Shown here: positions 5,635 through 46,037 of the stretch, one piece after another
How the letters are laid out: each line of letters opens with the position of its first letter
Numbering within the stretch: the first letter of the stretch is position 1
Source of the DNA: a virus
Reading direction: 5' to 3' (one strand)
Virus record (IMG/VR): IMGVR_UViG_3300032307_000646
Span: 1-64,000 of that record
Length of the DNA stretch: 64,000 nucleotides
Program-made: the position numbers and the translations under genes
The notes under the pieces: generated by a model
What the model saw: only the letters and a program-made list of their open reading frames with translations
The model's database searches: none
What the model was told of the DNA's origin: nothing

Positions 5635-5847
5635 TTAATTGTCCGCTGCTTCCAGTTGTTCGCCACAGTCGGCACACTTGTAATCCGTTTCCTCATATGG
5701 TGGATGTTCCTCATCGTAAGCAAAACAGTTACCACGATCATCAGGACCATCTCCCAGATTGTTGAACATATCCAGAGCCTCTTCCTCGGAAGGTGCACAT
5801 GCCCTACAGAAATCTACAGGGATTGATTCTGATGTGTAGATTCTCAT
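5635..5847 (-). CDS. small Cys-containing (zinc-binding) protein
   Basis: CxxC...CxxC; overlaps stop of DUF932 gene. Confidence 0.6.
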   Translation of the reverse strand: MRIYTSESIPVDFCRACAPSEEEALDMFNNLGDGPDDRGNCFAYDEEHPPYEETDYKCADCGEQLEAADN

Positions 5848-6653
5848 TGTGCGTAAGAGTTTGCAAGTTGCCAAAGACCCTCGTTGATGTCCAAGTTCAG
5901 GGTGATGTTCTTGATAGGACGAGCCTGACGAACTTTGTTATCTGAACCTAGATGTTTGAATTGTCCATTCACTAACTTCTCCTGAACGCGATTGAAGACA
6001 GTCCAAAGGTTGTTAGGGGCGTCATCTGCACGCTGTGGAACAAGCAAGCCGTTAACATCAACCGACAAAGCGATTTGAGATAAGTCAGCCAAGTTGTTCT
6101 CCTTGATGTACTCGGGGTAGCGGATTGCGAAAGCTTTCATTGCGAAATCCTTGCGAGCCTCTTCGGTCATCTCGGTACGCTCGAATGTCTTGATTGTATC
6201 GAACACCACAGGTAACTTCTCGGTGATGTCTCCAATCATCTCACGAACATTCTCGAATGAGTATCCCATGTGACGAAGATTCAACTTACCGAAAGTTTTA
6301 TCCGCAACCACCAAACCGTTTGAACAAATGAGACGGAATAAACCAACATGAAAGTTCATTGAACGAGTTCTATCGTGTGAGTTGGTGAAAAGGATTTCAG
6401 GTACATTACCACCCACACCCACAGCACCGAAATCTTGGTGACGGAAACGAACTAGGTGACGAGTCGTGTCAGGGCTTGTCTTTGACTTTTGTTGGCCAAC
6501 ATCGTGGATGTTCCATCCGAACTTCGAAAGGTCATCGATAACATCGATTGTTGGGATGAACTGATAGTGCTTTGATGCACCTGCCTTCGCTCCTTCTTCT
6601 GCTGTGCGGAATACTGCGGGGGCTTTTGCTTTTAACTCTTCAACTGTAAACAT
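5844..6653 (-). CDS. DUF932 (TIGR03299-like) protein
   Basis: YQFIPT, HLVRFR, NSHD, GLFRLICSNGLV, LWTVFNRVQE motifs; start at MFTVEEL. Confidence 0.85.
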   Translation of the reverse strand: MFTVEELKAKAPAVFRTAEEGAKAGASKHYQFIPTIDVIDDLSKFGWNIHDVGQQKSKTSPDTTRHLVRFRHQDFGAVGVGGNVPEILFTNSHDRTRSMNFHVGLFRLICSNGLVVADKTFGKLNLRHMGYSFENVREMIGDITEKLPVVFDTIKTFERTEMTEEARKDFAMKAFAIRYPEYIKENNLADLSQIALSVDVNGLLVPQRADDAPNNLWTVFNRVQEKLVNGQFKHLGSDNKVRQARPIKNITLNLDINEGLWQLANSYAQ

Positions 6654-7602: not shown

Positions 7603-8178
7603 TTAATTTTCATTTTCTTCCCACTCATCCAAATCATCTTCCTCATTCATATCAATGAATACTACTCGGAAAGCCGCGTACTCACCATAGGCATCTTTGA
7701 TACCATACACATCGTAAGAACCGTCACCGAATCCTGAAGATGATACAACTCCGTTTGGAAGTACACCCCAACTTTCAGGGTGGTCTAGAGTAATCTTACA
7801 ACAAGCGTGATACCATATATCTGCGTCACGGTCGCTGTCGTCAGTCAGGAAGTCACCACCGAAGTCATACTTGGGCATATCCTTAACACTCGCTGATTTA
7901 CGGTAGTGGTCACGATCGAAGAAACCGAACTGTCCACTGTCCACACCAAAGGTTCCTGGAAGTTCTTCCCAATCACTTTCGTTGATTTTAATATCACTGT
8001 GGTGAATTGTCAGGTCAATATTCCGCTGTCCCCAATCTCCAACGGTTTCAATGTTGGAATGGGCTAACCAAGTACCTTTCCTTACATTGTTAACAGTACT
8101 CATACACCAAATGTCTGTGGTGTAGCAAGGGTCGCTACATACTAACGACCCTGAAGTAATCTCGAATTTTTGTGTCAT
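7603..8178 (-). CDS. DUF4241-like protein
   Basis: SDPCY, GVDSGQFGFFD, SSSGFGDGSY motifs. Confidence 0.75.
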   Translation of the reverse strand: MTQKFEITSGSLVCSDPCYTTDIWCMSTVNNVRKGTWLAHSNIETVGDWGQRNIDLTIHHSDIKINESDWEELPGTFGVDSGQFGFFDRDHYRKSASVKDMPKYDFGGDFLTDDSDRDADIWYHACCKITLDHPESWGVLPNGVVSSSGFGDGSYDVYGIKDAYGEYAAFRVVFIDMNEEDDLDEWEENEN

Positions 8179-8189
8179 TTGATTTTATT

Positions 8190-8435
8190 TTAAAGTGTTG
8201 GTAATACTCCGTTCTCGCCATAAAATAATACACCACCCTCGTTACCCTCATCATCTGCTGATAAGATACAACTAGTTCCATCATTCAGGAAGAAACAAAT
8301 TGGTCGTTTGTTCCAACCCATCATTTCCATTTCCTCATCATTCAGGTATCGTACCTCAACGATTGTCTTTCCCTGAAGAACTTTCTTCGCTTCAGTGTCC
8401 CAATACTCTTGGATGTCTTTTTGTTTTGTAGCCAT
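8190..8435 (-). CDS. hypothetical protein
   Basis: own promoter; DDEGN.GG motif. Confidence 0.7.
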   Translation of the reverse strand: MATKQKDIQEYWDTEAKKVLQGKTIVEVRYLNDEEMEMMGWNKRPICFFLNDGTSCILSADDEGNEGGVLFYGENGVLPTL

Positions 8436-9625: not shown

Positions 9626-9937
9626 TTAATCACAAATGTATTCTTCGTATTCATCTTCCCACGCTTCAGGTGTAATCAGGTAGCCCAAACGATTGACGAA
9701 GTGAAAGCCCGCGATGATGATTAACTCACCATCCTCGTTGTCCACGATTGTCCAGATGTTCTTGTTAAGTTTCTGTTTAACATACTCAACCTCTTTACCA
9801 AAGGTTTCGTACATACAGCCGCCGAATGAACACATATCTTCAGGTGATAGTCCATCTTTCAGGGTTGGTAAAAGTACCTGATTAAATTCAGGGTTATACT
9901 TTTCGTAGAAGTTGTCTATTGTCATTTGCTTTTCCAT
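9626..9937 (-). CDS. hypothetical protein
   Basis: YETFG, IWT, GFHFVNRLGY motifs. Confidence 0.7.
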   Translation of the reverse strand: MEKQMTIDNFYEKYNPEFNQVLLPTLKDGLSPEDMCSFGGCMYETFGKEVEYVKQKLNKNIWTIVDNEDGELIIIAGFHFVNRLGYLITPEAWEDEYEEYICD

Positions 9938-9961
9938 AATCCAAATGTAAGTATAAAAAAG

Positions 9962-10156
9962 TTACCCCGCAAGTTTTTCTACAAAATAATTACTTTTGTT
10001 TATTCTCTCTAGCGCGTAGATGAATTGTTCCTCACTGGCGTTCTCGTCTAACGCCACCTGTAATTTATTCACGTCCCCGATCGTTAGGTCTAGGTGGTGC
10101 AGGTCAAACTTGTTGACCATATCATATACTTTTTGAACAGTTATCTTACTACGCAT
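9962..10156 (-). CDS. hypothetical protein
   Basis: overlaps end of SprT-like gene. Confidence 0.55.
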   Translation of the reverse strand: MRSKITVQKVYDMVNKFDLHHLDLTIGDVNKLQVALDENASEEQFIYALERINKSNYFVEKLAG

Positions 10157-40101: not shown

Positions 40102-41000
40102 TACATTATATAGTTAGTTAATTCATATTTACCAGAAGGCATTCTGTATAATGAAATTTGTAACATTTTTTTAAGCGGTTTACCATCTTTTAATAACTCA
40201 ACATGGTACTGAACAGTTTTTTCATAAGCAACATGTTCTGGGGTGATACTTTCCCAGTTAACCGTAAAACCTTTATGGTTAGCGTATTCTTCGGCAGATT
40301 CTAAAGCACCAGCTTGTGTATCAAAATAATTTTCTTGTTGGAATCCTCTACCTTCGAAAACTTTACCATCTTTACCAGCTCTCATAGCCATCCAAGAACC
40401 TTCCTCTTCTTCAAGCTCTTTTTGAAGTTCGTCCAGACTTTCTAATTTAAGATCACCCAAAGCGTCCATTGTGTCGTCATAACCAGGCATTTTATAATCT
40501 GGTTCTTCTTCTGGTTCTCCGAACATATCATCAATTAGTGATTGGGCCATTGATTTTAAATCAATTTTATTATTACCACGACCCATATTCCAAACACTCC
40601 CTAAAGCGTTCTCAAGGTAATCAACCCTATTATCGGAGCCAACCTTCGCATCTTCCATAGCAAGATCCCAAGATTCCTCAACGTCTTCATTTTTCTCAAA
40701 AGTTTCTGGGTCTCTATCTTGTTTATTAGCGGTTGCGTAATAAACCTCTTCACCCTTTTTATCACCGTATTGGTCTTTGAATTTATTAAGAACTTCAGTG
40801 TTCTCATCAGTTTCCTCTTCTCTCATTGAACCAACAATATCCGATGGAGATAACTCTTCTATCGCGTCTTTACCGTAATTGATTTCATAATCATCATCCT
40901 CTGGGGACATGTTTGTAATTTTACCGCTTGGGCTAACATGATTTACACCCATCATTTCTTGTATTCTAGAAAGTTCTTCGTTTAAACTGGATTTTTTCAT
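40101..41000 (-). CDS. acidic protein with LNEELSRIQEMMG motif
   Basis: TATTTATA at 41021-41014; K.QYG..KGE.VYYATANK domain. Confidence 0.8.
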   Translation of the reverse strand: MKKSSLNEELSRIQEMMGVNHVSPSGKITNMSPEDDDYEINYGKDAIEELSPSDIVGSMREEETDENTEVLNKFKDQYGDKKGEEVYYATANKQDRDPETFEKNEDVEESWDLAMEDAKVGSDNRVDYLENALGSVWNMGRGNNKIDLKSMAQSLIDDMFGEPEEEPDYKMPGYDDTMDALGDLKLESLDELQKELEEEEGSWMAMRAGKDGKVFEGRGFQQENYFDTQAGALESAEEYANHKGFTVNWESITPEHVAYEKTVQYHVELLKDGKPLKKMLQISLYRMPSGKYELTNYIM

Positions 41001-41067
41001 AAAAACATTTATTTATAAATACTTTTATAAAAAGAAAAAAGACTATATTGGTAATTAAAATGTGAAG

Positions 41068-41141
41068 TCGTCCTAGCTGGACTCGAACCAGCGGCCTTCT
41101 GCGTATCAGGCAGACGCTCTAACCAACTGAGCTACAGGACG
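41068..41141 (-). tRNA. trnI: tRNA-Ile(GAT)
   Basis: cloverleaf; anticodon arm TCTGC-CTGATAC-GCAGA. Confidence 0.92.
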
Positions 41142-41201
41142 ATAAATTAGATTTTGCACAATAAACATTGTTCGTTTATCGTAGCAAAAACGGGTTTATT
41201 G

Positions 41202-41275
41202 TACCTTCAGAGAGACTCGAACTCCCAACCTTTTCGTTCGTAGCGAAACGCTCTAATCCATTGAGCTATGAAGGT
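41202..41275 (-). tRNA. trnR: tRNA-Arg(ACG)
   Basis: TTTCG-CTACGAA-CGAAA. Confidence 0.92.
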
Positions 41276-41280
41276 AAATA

Positions 41281-41393
41281 ATAGGCCATTGTTACAATAT
41301 CTCTCACCCACTTTCTTGGCAGGGTATCCATCATGGGTTCCGTTAACTGATATCTATTTTATAACCCCTGACGGAACAAACGGGGTAACCTAT
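41281..41393 (-). ncRNA. candidate structured RNA in tRNA operon
   Basis: closing helix ATAGGTTA/TGGCCTAT, inner GTTCCGT/ACGGAAC. Confidence 0.45.
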
Positions 41394-41394
41394 T

Positions 41395-41472
41395 TGGGGT
41401 GACTGATGGGACTCGAACCCACGACCTCTTGAATCACAATCAAGCACTCTAACCAACTGAGCTACAGAAACC
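41395..41472 (-). tRNA. trnH: tRNA-His(GTG)
   Basis: CTTGA-TTGTGAT-TCAAG, G-1, encoded CCA; acceptor mismatches. Confidence 0.88.
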
Positions 41473-41477
41473 ATATA

Positions 41478-41552
41478 TGGTAGCGAGAGGGAATTTCGAA
41501 ATCCCGACCTTTCGGATATGAGCCGAATGCTCTTCCTCTGAGCTATCTCGCC
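41478..41552 (-). tRNA. trnM: tRNA-Met(CAT), elongator-type (Ile2 not excluded)
   Basis: TTCGG-CTCATAT-CCGAA, encoded CCA. Confidence 0.88.
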
Positions 41553-41581
41553 ATTTTCTCGCCAATATGGCGAGATATTTG

Positions 41582-41652
41582 TTGTCCCTTCAGGACTCGA
41601 ACCTGAATTCTCTGGCTCAAAACCAGATGTGCTGCCATTACACCAAGGGACA
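41582..41652 (-). tRNA. trnQ: tRNA-Gln(TTG)
   Basis: TCTGG-TTTTGAG-CCAGA. Confidence 0.9.
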
Positions 41653-41655
41653 ATA

Positions 41656-41731
41656 TGGTGGAGCTAATGGGACTCGAACCCACATCCTCTTCCTTGCAAG
41701 GGAAGCGCTCAGCCAATTGAGCTATAACCCC
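41656..41731 (-). tRNA. trnA: tRNA-Ala(TGC)
   Basis: CTTCC-CTTGCAA-GGAAG, G3:U70, encoded CCA. Confidence 0.93.
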
Positions 41732-41732
41732 A

Positions 41733-42194
41733 TTAATTTTGTCGAAAAGTTATCTGCCTTAAACAATGGTCTAGCAGATACTGTTCAACATTTGGTATTT
41801 TCCTCAAGAAGTCATACTCATATGAATAACAAAGTATTTCTTCTCTTGGTGATTCTTGGACACCTCTATATCTAAGATAAAGGTGTAAAGATTCATGTAC
41901 AATAACAGCCGCGAGATTGTTTAGGGATTTTGCCCTAGCGTCTGTTGACGATATTACTATACTACCCTTTGCGTCTTTAGAACCCTCATTTGTTGAGTAG
42001 TTACCAGACCAAAATGTTATTTTATTACAAACACGTAAAACGAGTTTATAAGCGGTGGTATCTGTTTGTCTGATAATTGTTAAAGCACTATCAGCTCTCA
42101 GATCCCAACCATCCCCAGCTTTATCGATTACAATTTGTGATTTACAAATCGTTGTGGATAAAACCATTACGATCATTAATATTAGTTTCCTCAT
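41733..42194 (-). CDS. exported HExxH metallopeptidase-like protein
   Basis: signal peptide MRKLIL...KS-Q, IVHESLH and downstream EE; TATTTATT at 42205-42198. Confidence 0.7.
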   Translation of the reverse strand: MRKLILMIVMVLSTTICKSQIVIDKAGDGWDLRADSALTIIRQTDTTAYKLVLRVCNKITFWSGNYSTNEGSKDAKGSIVISSTDARAKSLNNLAAVIVHESLHLYLRYRGVQESPREEILCYSYEYDFLRKIPNVEQYLLDHCLRQITFRQN

Positions 42195-42206
42195 ATTAAT
42201 AAATAG

Positions 42207-42288
42207 TGCCAGCAGGTGGACTCGAACCACCGAACCCGTAAGGGAGCAGATTTACAGTCTGCCGCAATTGCCGCTATGCGATACTGGC
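42207..42288 (-). tRNA. trnY: tRNA-Tyr(GTA)
   Basis: GCAGA-CTGTAAA-TCTGC, long variable arm. Confidence 0.92.
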
Positions 42289-42293
42289 AAGTG

Positions 42294-42426
42294 AGGTAAG
42301 AGGAAGATGGTTCAGTGGACATCCTCTTTTACGATCGGCATTACTTGGGTGAATACCTGCAAACTCCGATCACACCAGTCAGTATTCACTCTCGAACTAT
42401 TGATGTGATCATTCCCCGATCAACCT
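42294..42426 (-). ncRNA. candidate pseudoknotted RNA in tRNA operon
   Basis: four helices including a 10-bp pseudoknot pairing. Confidence 0.65.
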
Positions 42427-42429
42427 TTG

Positions 42430-42502
42430 TACACCCTATAGGACTCGAACCTATGACATCTGCCATGTAAGGGCAGCGCTCTACCAACTGAGCTAAAGGT
42501 GC
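42430..42502 (-). tRNA. trnV: tRNA-Val(TAC)
   Basis: CTGCC-CTTACAT-GGCAG. Confidence 0.92.
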
Positions 42503-42604
42503 ATGTGTCCCTTCGTAGGTACTTGCCGTTTCTTAAGTCGACACTTTCCCCGTTGCGTGTTTTATTTAAGTGTACTTCCCTACTGGGACTTGAAGCCAAC
42601 ACAT
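42503..42604 (-). ncRNA. candidate structured RNA in tRNA operon
   Basis: nested ATGTGT/ACACAT, GTCCC/GGGAC, GTAGG/CCTAC, CTTAA/TTAAG. Confidence 0.5.
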
Positions 42605-42606
42605 TG

Positions 42607-42687
42607 TACCCAAAGAGAGACTCGAACTCTCACGCCTTTCAGCCACGGTTTCTAAGACCGTTATGTCTACCATTCCATCACTCGGGC
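42607..42687 (-). tRNA. trnL: tRNA-Leu(TAG)
   Basis: ACGGT-CTTAGAA-ACCGT, long variable arm. Confidence 0.92.
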
Positions 42688-42694
42688 ATTTTAG

Positions 42695-42765
42695 CACGGA
42701 TACAAGGATTCGAACCCTGAACTGTGGTTTTGGAGACCATTATGATACCATTTCACCATACCCGT
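42695..42765 (-). tRNA. trnW: tRNA-Trp(CCA)
   Basis: TGGT-CTCCAAA-ACCA, G73. Confidence 0.9.
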
Positions 42766-42774
42766 GTATATTTG

Positions 42775-42844
42775 AGTATAAGGTTGGAATCGAACCAACA
42801 CCGTTGGTTTTGCAGACCAACTGACCACCACGATCAACTTATAC
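42775..42844 (-). tRNA. trnC: tRNA-Cys(GCA), short D-arm
   Basis: TTGGT-CTGCAAA-ACCAA, U73. Confidence 0.82.
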
Positions 42845-42849
42845 GTTTG

Positions 42850-42923
42850 TGTCCCCGACAGGACTCGAACCTGTGACTCCCTCATTAAAAGTGAGGTGCT
42901 CTAACCAACTGAGCTACGAAGAC
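42850..42923 (-). tRNA. trnK: tRNA-Lys(TTT)
   Basis: CCTCA-CTTTTAA-TGAGG. Confidence 0.92.
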
Positions 42924-42929
42924 ATTGTG

Positions 42930-43005
42930 TCAGGATAGCTGGATTCGAACCAGCGATCCCCCGCGTCCAAGGCGGGTAGGGACGACCTGACTCCCCCATA
43001 TCCTG
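42930..43005 (-). tRNA. trnP: tRNA-Pro(TGG)
   Basis: CCCGC-CTTGGAC-GCGGG. Confidence 0.85.
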
Positions 43006-43012
43006 AATTAAG

Positions 43013-43087
43013 TAGCGTAGACAGGACTCGAACCTGCACTATGTCCTCATCCCAAATGAGGCGGCCTACCAATTGGCCAACTACGCT
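43013..43087 (-). tRNA. trnP: tRNA-Pro(TGG), second divergent copy
   Basis: CCTCA-TTTGGGA-TGAGG. Confidence 0.85.
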
Positions 43088-43106
43088 ATTTTAAAATTAC
43101 CAATAC

Positions 43107-43116
43107 GTCAAAGAAC
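43107..43116 (-). promoter_or_regulatory. boxA-like antitermination element
   Basis: GTTCTTTGAC between attenuator and first tRNA; resembles rrn boxA. Confidence 0.65.
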
Positions 43117-43119
43117 TGC

Positions 43120-43151
43120 AAAAAAAAACCCTGAACTTGTTGGTTCAGGGC
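43120..43151 (-). terminator. intrinsic terminator/attenuator upstream of tRNA operon
   Basis: GCCCTGAAC-CAACAA-GTTCAGGGT plus T tract. Confidence 0.9.
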
Positions 43152-43187
43152 TTCGTTTTTCTTAGTTTTAGTTTTATTTCTACAACA

Positions 43188-43286
43188 TCATGAAAATACT
43201 TGGTCTGAACCCGATACGGTACGAGGATACCACTGGCACACTGCCATCGGTTTAATCACTGCGATATGTAGGTTCATATTTTTCAT
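43188..43286 (-). CDS. leader peptide of tRNA operon attenuator (32 aa)
   Basis: MKNMNLHIAVIKPMAVCQWYPRTVSGSDQVFS read by hand; lies between promoter and terminator. Confidence 0.8.
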   Translation of the reverse strand: MKNMNLHIAVIKPMAVCQWYPRTVSGSDQVFS

Positions 43287-43313
43287 TTTAATGTTATTGT
43301 TAAATAATTAGTA

Positions 43314-43344
43314 CAAAATTAAGCAAAGTTTTCTAAAAAACAAA
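43314..43344 (-). promoter_or_regulatory. Bacteroidota-type promoter of tRNA operon
   Basis: TTTG-N19-TAATTTTG. Confidence 0.8.
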
Positions 43345-43371
43345 CTTTTTACGATTTTTTTTTAAAAAAAA

Positions 43372-43755
43372 TTATCTTTTACCAGTTTTTGTTGGGTTAA
43401 CACCTTGATTTCTATCAATATAGATCCAGTCACAAGATGTTAAATCAAATTGATTTAAGTGATCTAAGACAACATCTATATCATATTCTTTGCAAGAATA
43501 TATATCAAACTGCACTAAAGATGGGGTCTCGTTATCCCAAACGTGTATCGATGCGTGTGATGTTGCTAATGTTATCGTACCCGTAACACCTTCGTTACCT
43601 GGCTCGTTTACATATACGGATGTTGGGCCAGCCACAACTACCATACCAACTTTATCAACTAACTCTTTTAACCAAGTGTTAAGCGATTCTTCTGTTCTTG
43701 GTGGGTTATTTACAAACCCCCTAACAATTAAATGTACGTGATTAGGTTTAAACAT
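43372..43755 (-). CDS. speD: S-adenosylmethionine decarboxylase-like proenzyme
   Basis: HLI, GVTG...LATSHASIHVW, DIYSCK motifs (class 1b pyruvoyl fold). Confidence 0.75.
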   Translation of the reverse strand: MFKPNHVHLIVRGFVNNPPRTEESLNTWLKELVDKVGMVVVAGPTSVYVNEPGNEGVTGTITLATSHASIHVWDNETPSLVQFDIYSCKEYDIDVVLDHLNQFDLTSCDWIYIDRNQGVNPTKTGKR

Positions 43756-43759
43756 GGTT

Positions 43760-44026
43760 TTAAAATTCTTCTTCTAAATCATCATTATCATCATCATCGA
43801 AGGTTCTACCATCGTAGTAACCGTCATCTGTGTCAGATATTATTGTTTCTATTTCATATAACACATCACTTATTCGTTCAATAACGTTATCGGTTACATC
43901 ATCCCTAAAATTCTCAGGATCAATCATCTCTAACTTATTTTCGGCATCTTCCTTGAGATCAATTATTTGTCTCTGTAAGTCTTTAAGATAATTTAAGGCT
44001 AATTTGCTCATGTTGTTTTTTTTCAC
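43760..44026 (-). CDS. acidic hypothetical protein
   Basis: TATTTAT upstream. Confidence 0.6.
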   Translation of the reverse strand: MKKNNMSKLALNYLKDLQRQIIDLKEDAENKLEMIDPENFRDDVTDNVIERISDVLYEIETIISDTDDGYYDGRTFDDDDNDDLEEEF

Positions 44027-44138: not shown

Positions 44139-46037
44139 ATGAAAAATTTATTTTTAACGCTAGTGCTGGCGTTATTAGCCATTACTGGCTATGCACAAAC
44201 AACTGCGCCGTCAGGTGGTAATTGGGTTATCGTTGACTCATCTTACAATGTCGGACCGCAGTCACAAGGTTTCACTTTAGCTAACCTTTATTATGACAAC
44301 ACAACAACGACTAAAATTGCTGGTTTACAGTTCCGTGTATTCTACGACAAAGTGGCTTTCGGTGGTGCAAAACCAACCGTAACCTTGTTATACAGTAGTA
44401 CTGACCAGTATATGCAATATGTTGCAGATTCGGTGAATGGTAACATTACCGTTACGTTAGCTTATACGGGTACCAACAACTCATTCACATATGCTGACGG
44501 TGCGGCGTTCCAGATTAAGTTCTTTCACCAAGCTGCAACCGCTTTCCAAGCTTTAACTAGTATTGATAGTTTGAAGGTTACTGGTACTTTAACGTTCCCT
44601 TCATATGCATCAACAATAGCTGGTATTGATACAACATTATCTTTACATAGTTATGGTGGTGAATTTAAAATGAACAGATTGAAATACCACGGTAGATTTA
44701 CAAACGTAACTGGTTCTGGATCTAAAGATATTACAATTGCTTTAGAGAAAAGACCTAAAACATCAACAGGTGCTTGGACTCAGGTTAAACTTGATACCAC
44801 TGACGTTACGGGTTATTTCGCTTTTGATGAGATCTTAGATACAACTTATTGGGATGCTCACTTATACGTTAAAGGTGATACGATGGCTGTGGGTAACACA
44901 GTATCTGTTGCCGATGCACAAAAGGTTAATAAATTCGTTATAGGTGAAGAAACACCAACAGGTTTTGATTTCTACGCGTCTGACGTAAACGGTTCTTACG
45001 GTATTACAATTGCTGACGTATCAGCTATATACGGTCGCTTAGCGGGTAGATTCTCAGTGTGGCCAAACTCTATTCAGGACGTTAGATTCTTCTCAGCTTC
45101 ACAGTATGCGACAATCAACGGATCTTCAACTAACTATACATCAACTATTGCTGGTGTAACTAACTTAACATTTGATATTATCGCTGGTCAACCTGACTCA
45201 GTAACATTCTACGTATTAGGTGGTGGTGACGCGAACGGTACTGGTTTCCATATGGCTCGTACAATCCCTATTGAAATCTTAAATCCTAGTAAAACTCCTC
45301 AGTATATCATCGATGAGACAGTTGAGTACGATTTCCCTACATCGACAATCGAAATTAATTTACCAAAAATTGAAATCACTGAGGGTAGTTTAGTAAACGT
45401 ACCAATGAAAGTTTTAACACAAGGTGACCAAGTTGGTTCAATTCAATTGGCTTTGGCTTACGATAACACTTTATTGGAGTTTAAAGGTATTAAAACAGAA
45501 CAAAAATTTATGAACTGGATGTCATTCTTAAACCCTAATAACGGTGTTGTTGAATGGGCTGGTGCTGATATGAGTAAAAACGAATATCTGGCTAATAACG
45601 GTGACGCTGTTTTAACATTACAATTTACAGCGTTATCACCACAATCAACCTGGGGTAATAGCGCTTTATATGTTATAAGAAAATACGCTGGAGACGCTTC
45701 CGCAACTGATTTAAGAATAACACCAACAAACGGCGTTGTTAAGATATTCAAAGTAAATGGTGGTGGTACTTTAACAAAGGATTGTGAAATAATCGTTACC
45801 CCTAACCCAACAGATGGTTTAGCTTTTGTAAGCTTTAGTGTACCAGAAGATGGAGAAATTTCGGTTGGGTTTTATGATGCTAGTGGTAAATTAGTGTATA
45901 GTGTTTATAAGGGTAAAATGTATAAAGGTAAATATCTTTATCCAGTTGACTTGACTAACGTAACACCTGGCACATACTATGGTATTCTACAAACAGGATC
46001 TCAAATCAAAACAAATAAAACAATAAAATTAAACTAA
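44139..46037 (+). CDS. exported cohesin/dockerin-like protein with T9SS C-terminal sorting domain
   Basis: signal peptide; AGLQF...YD and SIQL...YD cohesin-like; DVNGS..ITIAD dockerin-like; PNPT...YDASGKLV...GTYY tail. Confidence 0.75.
   Translation: MKNLFLTLVLALLAITGYAQTTAPSGGNWVIVDSSYNVGPQSQGFTLANLYYDNTTTTKIAGLQFRVFYDKVAFGGAKPTVTLLYSSTDQYMQYVADSVNGNITVTLAYTGTNNSFTYADGAAFQIKFFHQAATAFQALTSIDSLKVTGTLTFPSYASTIAGIDTTLSLHSYGGEFKMNRLKYHGRFTNVTGSGSKDITIALEKRPKTSTGAWTQVKLDTTDVTGYFAFDEILDTTYWDAHLYVKGDTMAVGNTVSVADAQKVNKFVIGEETPTGFDFYASDVNGSYGITIADVSAIYGRLAGRFSVWPNSIQDVRFFSASQYATINGSSTNYTSTIAGVTNLTFDIIAGQPDSVTFYVLGGGDANGTGFHMARTIPIEILNPSKTPQYIIDETVEYDFPTSTIEINLPKIEITEGSLVNVPMKVLTQGDQVGSIQLALAYDNTLLEFKGIKTEQKFMNWMSFLNPNNGVVEWAGADMSKNEYLANNGDAVLTLQFTALSPQSTWGNSALYVIRKYAGDASATDLRITPTNGVVKIFKVNGGGTLTKDCEIIVTPNPTDGLAFVSFSVPEDGEISVGFYDASGKLVYSVYKGKMYKGKYLYPVDLTNVTPGTYYGILQTGSQIKTNKTIKLN

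Follow-up and report, generated by a model that had tools for sequence, protein, structure and literature searches.

Leader peptides that list several amino acids are known from enterobacteria, where thrL carries Thr and Ile codons and ilvL and ivbL carry Ile, Leu, and Val codons; in these systems a translated leader lies between the promoter and an intrinsic terminator, and the RNA can form the mutually exclusive helices 1:2, 2:3, and 3:4. A locus built in the same way is present in a 64,000-nt stretch of DNA from an uncultured phage (positions 1-64,000 of record IMGVR_UViG_3300032307_000646; this whole stretch is referred to here as the window), in which, on the minus strand, a promoter is followed by a 32-codon open reading frame (ORF), an A-rich spacer, an intrinsic terminator, a boxA-like motif, and 14 tRNA genes. 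Codons 6-22 of this leader ORF specify exactly the 13 amino acids of the downstream tRNAs and none besides, and we consider it likely that the leader is a trp-style, ribosome-mediated attenuator that senses the speed at which these codons are decoded and feeds back on tRNA synthesis; the phage would then probably make the 14 tRNAs of the array only when ribosomes read those codons slowly. The locus departs from thrL, ilvL, and ivbL in that tRNA genes rather than biosynthetic enzymes would be regulated, in what appears to be a Bacteroidota phage, and in that the leaders list 13 to 20 amino acids, mostly by single codons, where the enterobacterial leaders have codon runs for 2-3 kinds.

Other described systems share single elements with this locus. 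The four-region logic is that of trpL and hisL, and in short relatives of the window leader region 2 begins directly after the stop codon, as it does in the trp leader; trpL and hisL, however, each sense one amino acid through tandem codons, and the window-type leader has its region 2 within the ORF, 5 codons ahead of the stop. The Phe-codon leader of E. coli pheST likewise places a component of the translation machinery under leader attenuation and responds to the supply of charged tRNA, but it controls the synthetase for one amino acid and not tRNAs themselves. The T-box riboswitch also senses tRNA status and chooses between a terminator and an antiterminator; unlike the present leader, it binds one uncharged tRNA directly and involves no translation, and no T-box is among the 30 Rfam matches at E values up to 10 in the interval 40800-43800. 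No Rfam leader family reaches threshold in this interval, the best being Thr_leader at 22.8 bits against a threshold of 55 (E = 0.32) over 43120-43191, that is, the spacer and terminator. A decayed tRNA or another known RNA was considered as the identity of the leader stretch and rejected, with neither ARAGORN nor Rfam giving an above-threshold match there. A literature search, with subscription journals outside its reach, returned no paper on leader-peptide control of tRNA genes, and the accessible text of two papers on phage tRNAs (PMC13015707, PMC10264068) contains no mention of attenuation, leader, terminator, or promoter.

The leader ORF (43188-43286, minus strand, as are all parts of the locus; MKNMNLHIAVIKPMAVCQWYPRTVSGSDQVFS) has 32 codons and a TGA stop, and 22 window-type copies with 8 distinct DNA sequences are available. 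The tRNA array (41067-43087), called by ARAGORN in agreement with Rfam RF00005, holds Pro, Pro, Lys, Cys, Trp, Leu, Val, and Tyr, then an ORF at 41733-42230, and then Ala, Gln, Met, His, Arg, and Ile; these 14 genes stand for 13 amino acids, and the full 73,368-nt record has no other tRNA genes. The sensor codons (6-22; 43221-43271) read L H I A V I K P M A V C Q W Y P R, with one or two codons for each amino acid, and all 17 fall in the codon box of some array tRNA. The six frames of the window contain 30,167 maximal runs of in-set residues, of which one reaches 13/13, followed by one run with 12 and two with 11; at the level of codon boxes, one run out of 31,221 covers 13, and the runners-up (three runs) cover 10. 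The exact match had been claimed in an earlier, sequence-only reading of this DNA, and it is confirmed here as the only full-set run in the window. The same reading had pointed to matching codon boxes, including a CTA codon for Leu and two Pro codons for two tRNA-Pro genes: the box match extends to all 17 codons, but the pairing of two Pro codons with two tRNA-Pro genes does not carry over to relatives, since L248 and L241 keep two such codons with one tRNA-Pro, and the CTA codon, present in the window, is not general, with CTT of the same box in several relatives.

An independent-trinucleotide model predicts 0.021 full-set runs per window at the amino acid level and 0.0015 at the codon-box level; by our own arithmetic the expectation near the cluster (roughly 300 codon positions) is about 5e-5 and 4e-6, respectively, which puts the set match far beyond chance. 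Nevertheless, the borders of the run (codons 6-22) were set after seeing the data and very many windows were scanned, so that a chance open frame listing 13 amino acids and picked after the fact has to be weighed; these low expectations at the site and the recurrence of the feature in a family and in an unrelated cultured phage leave us giving this explanation practically no credence. Taken alone, and given the number of windows scanned, the set match in the window is suggestive only, and it is the comparative data that carry the case. Between regions 1 and 2 (defined below) the window type has 13/13 amino acids in 20 codons (chance 1.2e-5 for independent, identically distributed (iid) residues); the tail brings the whole leader to 19/20 amino acids, and therefore only the stretch between the two regions is informative for this type. 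Across the 8 distinct window-type DNAs, H7, K12, C17, Q18, W19, and Y20 are invariant, as are codons 1-5 and 26-27, and the amino acids present twice swap among themselves. The Arg codon at position 22 has been lost twice (L248 and L245), each time with a new CGN Arg codon elsewhere.

The helices of an attenuator can be drawn at this locus. Region 2, GGGTTCAG (43205-43212, codons 25-28), contains GGTTCAG (43205-43211), which pairs as the antiterminator strand with region 3, CTGAACC (43142-43148) of the terminator 5' arm, at -11.8 kcal/mol, and with the protector, region 1 (TGAACCT at codons 4-6, 43270-43276), at -9.5 kcal/mol. The intrinsic terminator (43120-43154) has a stem at 43125-43154 of 12 pairs, 5 of them G-C, made by a 5' arm (43143-43154), a loop, and a 3' arm (43125-43136, region 4), and a T-run at 43120-43128; its 3:4 duplex has -16.1 kcal/mol, so that the three helices rank in strength as in trpL and hisL. 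The 1:2 helix is part of the minimum-free-energy fold of the window sequence (z = -4.8). A different assignment of region 2, as an inner hairpin at codons 12-20 of the window type, was dropped; adding three loop bases to region 3 recovers GGTTCAG. In 12 relatives (medium, L205, and long; classes described below), helices 1:2 and 3:4 show 98.4% pairing, 6 pairs having changed on both sides, and the antiterminator 2:3 is 99% paired, with 4 of its 8 pairs changed on both sides; in both tests the covariation score is reached by 0 of 500 shuffles. Helix 1:2 considered by itself is 96.4% paired in relatives, the 2:3 duplex of relatives has -12.3 to -12.8 kcal/mol, and sliding the helix partner by one column lowers pairing to 42-66%. 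The four regions thus differ in sequence between leader classes and keep their complementarity, and each of the 19 representatives analysed has an intrinsic terminator. Conservation at the peptide's N-terminus (MKTLT versus MKNMN) is explained by its coding for region 1. The alternative pairings of GGTTCAG, as antiterminator and as protector, that the sequence-only reading had described stand up in these relatives, where all three helices are conserved with compensatory changes.

A conserved fold could also mean that the ORF is untranslated and that the stretch is a structured RNA, such as an element for pausing or processing, or a small RNA that stops at the terminator. The region does fold well, as its z-score indicates, a terminated product would be stable at about 190 nt, and liberated attenuator RNAs can reportedly act in trans (PMC6614838). 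Coding constraint is nonetheless evident: frames of 50-53 codons remain open in 8 diverged long leaders, where stops make up about 9% of the codons in the other two frames of family leaders (101 and 69 per 953 codons), leaders retain the placement of the stop codon relative to region 2, and it is amino-acid sets and not nucleotides that are conserved, as the two replacements of the lost Arg codon illustrate. We therefore regard an untranslated structured RNA as most improbable.

The leader family was assembled from the AdoMet-decarboxylase-like gene upstream of the window leader, which led to 72 viral loci, and from leader patterns, which added further viral and metagenome contigs; members were selected by a pattern for the start of the peptide and by an ORF end at most 400 nt from a tRNA gene on the same strand. 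The resulting 57 loci hold 22 distinct leader peptides, every one with an ORF and an intrinsic terminator directly before a tRNA cluster on the same strand, and by length they form five classes: short (22 aa), medium (29), window type (32), a single one of 38, and long (50-53). The number of amino acids per class is 13 for the window type, 12-17 for the short and medium types, and 20 for the long type. Coverage was counted in 16 rows with at least 12 tRNA amino acids, with the partial loci L102, L218, L066, L245, L236, and L200 excluded; 11 of the 16 leaders hold every amino acid for which there is a downstream tRNA, and the other five miss Glu (L159 and L213), Asp, Glu, and Tyr (L188), a distal Ser (L068), or Asp (L205). 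All 8 distinct long leaders contain all 20 amino acids, a property of 182 out of 7,077 52-residue windows of proteins from these phages, and five of the 8 (L197, L198, L201, L202, and L207) stand before clusters in which each of the 20 has a tRNA. Between regions 1 and 2, the long type has 20/20 amino acids in 37-40 codons (iid chance 0.002-0.004) and L205 has 19/20 in 26 codons. Phe and Val are missing from the short leaders and from their clusters alike, as is Tyr except in L213 and L188. In L202, 48 of the 50 codons are decodable by strict codon-anticodon matching, a figure that comes with no baseline rate and adds little for big clusters. A permutation test over seven units (window, short, medium, L205, long, and two blocks of Cellulophaga phage phi17:2) gives a summed leader-versus-cluster Jaccard index that is matched by 4 of 5,040 permutations, with five of the seven leaders fitting their own cluster best.

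Individual changes in leaders accompany changes in clusters. Where tRNA-Ile is absent (L068 and L102), both Ile codons of the medium leader have been replaced; L213, with tRNA-Tyr at the head of its cluster, has a Gly-to-Tyr change in the leader; and L154 has tRNA-Ser(ACT) together with an AGT codon, L068 having neither. The anticodon ACT is unusual, and tRNA-Ser genes with it occur in L154, L144, L159, L197, and others, whose leaders use the matching AGT. The diverged leader of L245 has no Ala codon and a new AGT Ser codon, on a contig that stops after five tRNAs.

The same arrangement occurs three times in the cultured Cellulophaga phage phi17:2 (NC_021798.1; L291), each leader-plus-terminator unit preceding its own tRNA block and the first two having near-identical promoters ahead of them. 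The block of leader 1 (MKIQRLHLQELEQPIISGGTGV) consists of Pro, Glu, Gln, His, Leu(TAG), Leu(TAA), and Arg(ACG), and an 11-codon run in the leader covers 7/7 of the tRNA species of this block under strict wobble (expected 1.3e-5 in 300 positions). Leader 2, with the run TKTGITVIDKTKGARA, lies inside the annotated gene gp077, and its block holds Ala, Lys, Ile, Gly, Met, Asp, Thr, Val, Arg(TCT), and Met; leader 3 contains the run YNNSNWSFSY and is followed by tRNAs for Tyr, Ser, Asn, Trp, and Phe. The fraction of sensor codons that match the leader's own block is 0.79, 0.92, and 0.79 for the three leaders, compared with 0 to 0.29 for the other blocks, and this contrast within one genome is free of composition and ancestry effects. 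The choice of Arg codon tracks the isoacceptor in the block, CGT going with ACG and AGA with TCT (leader 2 uses AGA). Helix 1:2 is weak or absent in phi17:2. The ORF gp078, between tRNA-Tyr and tRNA-Ser, was considered as a leader and rejected; it has no terminator after it, and the third leader precedes tRNA-Tyr. In the annotation of L291 (gp077 and gp078, at 5813-5932 and 7754-7855), the gp077 coding sequence overlaps leader 2, and the start assigned to gp077 falls within the promoter of that leader. In a small control, the regions upstream of tRNA blocks in three phages whose hosts belong to other phyla (Bacillus, Providencia, and Erwinia) contain no full-set run, the best reaching 12/14, 11/16, and 11/15.

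Taken as a whole, the locus presents a short ORF between the promoter and the tRNA genes, an intrinsic terminator between the leader and the tRNA genes, an antiterminator that excludes the terminator and could be covered by a ribosome at the end of the leader, a 1:2 helix, and regulatory codons that match the product, with exceptions. The mechanism that these parts suggest is as follows. Transcription would start at the Bacteroidota-type promoter, and a ribosome would translate the 32-codon leader. If codons 6-22 are read fast, the ribosome would cover region 2 as region 3 emerges, or would already have left, with 1:2 paired; in either case the terminator 3:4 would form and transcription would stop at 43120. 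If aminoacyl-tRNA is scarce for any sensor codon, reading would be slow and the ribosome would stall upstream of region 2, so that 2:3 could pair, the terminator could not form, and RNA polymerase would enter the 14 tRNA genes. The new tRNAs would speed decoding and close the switch, a negative feedback that would hold the tRNA supply at the level translation needs. A ribosome cannot distinguish a missing tRNA from missing charging, and the design is the same as that of amino-acid operons, which would allow the attenuator to sense amino-acid starvation through uncharged tRNA and tie tRNA synthesis to the nutrient state. The codon sets, however, follow the downstream tRNA genes and not a biosynthetic pathway, and more tRNA does not relieve starvation, so that such feedback would be useless; starvation sensing therefore appears very unlikely to us.

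RNA libraries touch the locus at a few points. Six metatranscriptome runs hold small parts of the stretch, and four were compared, all of them as contigs in which depth, strand, and transcript ends are unreliable; regions that no RNA contig covers, such as the gene upstream of the promoter, carry no evidential weight, and the small share that the stretch has in these runs gives no information on habitat. One contig of 241 nt (X15, record 7) spans 43120-43330 and thus stops at the final T of the T-run (43120), and a 430-nt contig (X17, record 21) covers 42934-43330, bridging the terminator into the tRNA-Pro genes. Contigs can neither show transcript ends nor exclude DNA carry-over, and we read these two as a weak hint that terminated and read-through forms of the RNA may both exist.

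A number of points weigh against the attenuator. What is established directly is the set of parts, the way they are conserved, the compensatory changes, and the agreement between codon set and tRNA set; that the leader is translated, that ribosomes stall on it, that transcription ends at 43120, and that read-through is conditional we infer from sequence. The pattern used to collect family members fixes the first 7-8 residues of the peptide, and the members are related, so that counts over the 57 loci are not independent. Several leaders do not follow their clusters: L241 has lost tRNA-Ala and gained tRNA-Ser(GCT) with the leader unchanged, as it is in L211 and L185 after the loss of several tRNAs; the leaders of L199 (F, K, N, and V) and L154 (H, F, and V) contain residues for which there is no such tRNA; L188 has tRNA-Tyr, tRNA-Asp, and tRNA-Glu and lacks the matching codons; and the short leaders have no Glu codon despite a tRNA-Glu. 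The medium leader ranks 4 of 7 against its whole cluster; it covers 9/10 of the amino acids of the first uninterrupted block, and in big arrays with inner promoters the set of gated tRNAs is uncertain. On the side of the mechanism, the window-type antiterminator has a mere 7-8 pairs, and the last sensor codons come to within about 10 nt of region 2, part of which would be hidden by a ribosome stalled on them. When sequences were folded at equilibrium with the ribosome footprint masked, the terminator stayed intact at 6/6 stall positions in 6/6 sequences; these folds also allowed pairing across the ribosome and hence cannot decide the question of the switch, and any switch would have to be kinetic, since the terminator never opened. 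In classical attenuators the choice between helices is likewise kinetic. Finally, one or two sensor codons per amino acid, in place of tandem runs, make the sensitivity uncertain. Reading speeds of single codons have reportedly been measured with the his leader (PMC4046918), so that single sensor codons are not implausible. The matched and unmatched changes together indicate that the leader follows its cluster over long time scales and only loosely over short ones. With that qualification, the covariation of leader codons with tRNA content in related phages that the sequence-only reading had put forward as a check is borne out, and its interpretation of the leader by 1:2/2:3/3:4 logic before a tRNA operon is supported by the set match, the family, and the conserved helices.

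The leaders whose codons go beyond their clusters (L154 and L199) bear on a broader form of sensing, in which the attenuator would respond to general translation capacity (ribosome supply, coupling to RNA polymerase, or overall elongation rate) and the codons would be a broad sample. The long leaders, which sample all 20 amino acids, and the presence of each codon only once or twice are in keeping with this idea. What speaks against it is that leaders of partial clusters leave out the amino acids that lack a tRNA, the window core having its 13 only and the short leaders being without F, V, and Y, that the three leaders of phi17:2 each match their own block only, and that the Arg codon follows the isoacceptor of the block; we consider general capacity sensing unlikely on these grounds and favor the sensing of those codons that the downstream tRNAs read.

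Why phages carry tRNA genes has been under debate for decades, with codon compensation and escape from tRNA-cleaving defences as the leading explanations (PMC10264068, PMC11555353, and PMC12409363). An attenuator of the kind proposed could, tentatively, serve as a counter-defence sentinel, in which each codon reports a host tRNA lost to an anticodon nuclease or similar agent and replacement tRNAs are made only under attack; it is similarly possible, if doubtful, that the 20-amino-acid leaders guard the whole decoding set and that this is a general strategy of Bacteroidota phages. Defence systems that cleave host tRNAs would be a plausible trigger, but the design is explained just as well by an ordinary shortage of the tRNAs concerned.

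The remaining parts of the locus and its surroundings are consistent with a phage of Bacteroidota. The promoter (43314-43344), as read from the sequence, consists of TTTG at 43341-43344, a 19-nt spacer, and TAATTTTG at 43314-43321, which we take to fit the Bacteroidota -33/-7 consensus; a scan for sigma-70 promoters did not return it, as expected of a promoter of this type. At 44139-46037 on the plus strand lies a gene for a phage protein with a cohesin domain and a type IX secretion system (T9SS) sorting tail (Por_Secre_tail), which points to a Bacteroidota host, and together the sorting domain and the promoter type support Bacteroidota-type bacteria as the probable host. The record as a whole has a CheckV completeness of 25%. 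The minus-strand layout of promoter, ORF, terminator, and tRNAs agrees with the coordinates of the sequence-only reading, with the terminator stem here taken from 43154. The block from promoter to tRNAs is kept in close relatives despite three different upstream contexts. Between the terminator and the first tRNA lies GTTCTTTGAC (43107-43116), which we presume to resemble boxA and which occurs once in the whole window, both strands counted; its 8-nt core is found in 11 of 29 distinct leader-to-tRNA spacers, namely 10 of the 11 window-type spacers and that of L179. Its position, after a terminator and ahead of untranslated RNA genes, is reminiscent of boxA antitermination in rRNA operons, from which it differs in being limited to the window-type spacers and L179.

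Directly upstream of the leader promoter, at 43372-43755 on the minus strand, is the AdoMet-decarboxylase-like gene (PF02675, E = 3.5e-12), which has relatives in the 72 viral loci mentioned above. In some close relatives, L075-L080, L218, L236, and L278 (for example, L078 at 8236-8388), tRNA-Cys is present at this site together with a tRNA whose anticodon is CTA, which reads amber and which ARAGORN labels Pyl; the window-type leaders examined end in TGA or TAA, never TAG. The ORF within the window array, between tRNA-Tyr and tRNA-Ala (41733-42230), encodes 165 aa with a hydrophobic, signal-peptide-like N-terminus and has no Pfam match. At the site where relatives have tRNA-Asn, L098 (about 9930-10000) and L102 (reverse strand, right after the terminator) contain a tRNA-like stretch that ARAGORN does not call and that may be a broken or interrupted tRNA gene. 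A conserved stretch of about 50 nt borders the leader promoter on its upstream side, about 150-250 nt upstream of the leader start, in L038, L040, L048, and L068 and is absent from L036 and L041. A lone tRNA-Met gene lies 1.5-2 kb upstream of the leader in L038 (near 8017), L048 (near 8697), and further loci of the long and medium classes; it is served by a Bacteroidota-type promoter of its own, with no leader, which indicates that not all tRNA genes of these phages are gated.

If the proposed mechanism is correct, these phages would measure decoding speed and regulate their tRNA supply by feedback, and leader-peptide attenuation would extend from amino-acid operons to tRNA genes, with leaders that list up to 20 amino acids. 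Since the cultured phage phi17:2 carries three such units, the idea is directly testable at the bench. Further, small "hypothetical proteins" annotated inside phage tRNA arrays, of which gp077 of phi17:2 is an example, may be leaders of this kind.

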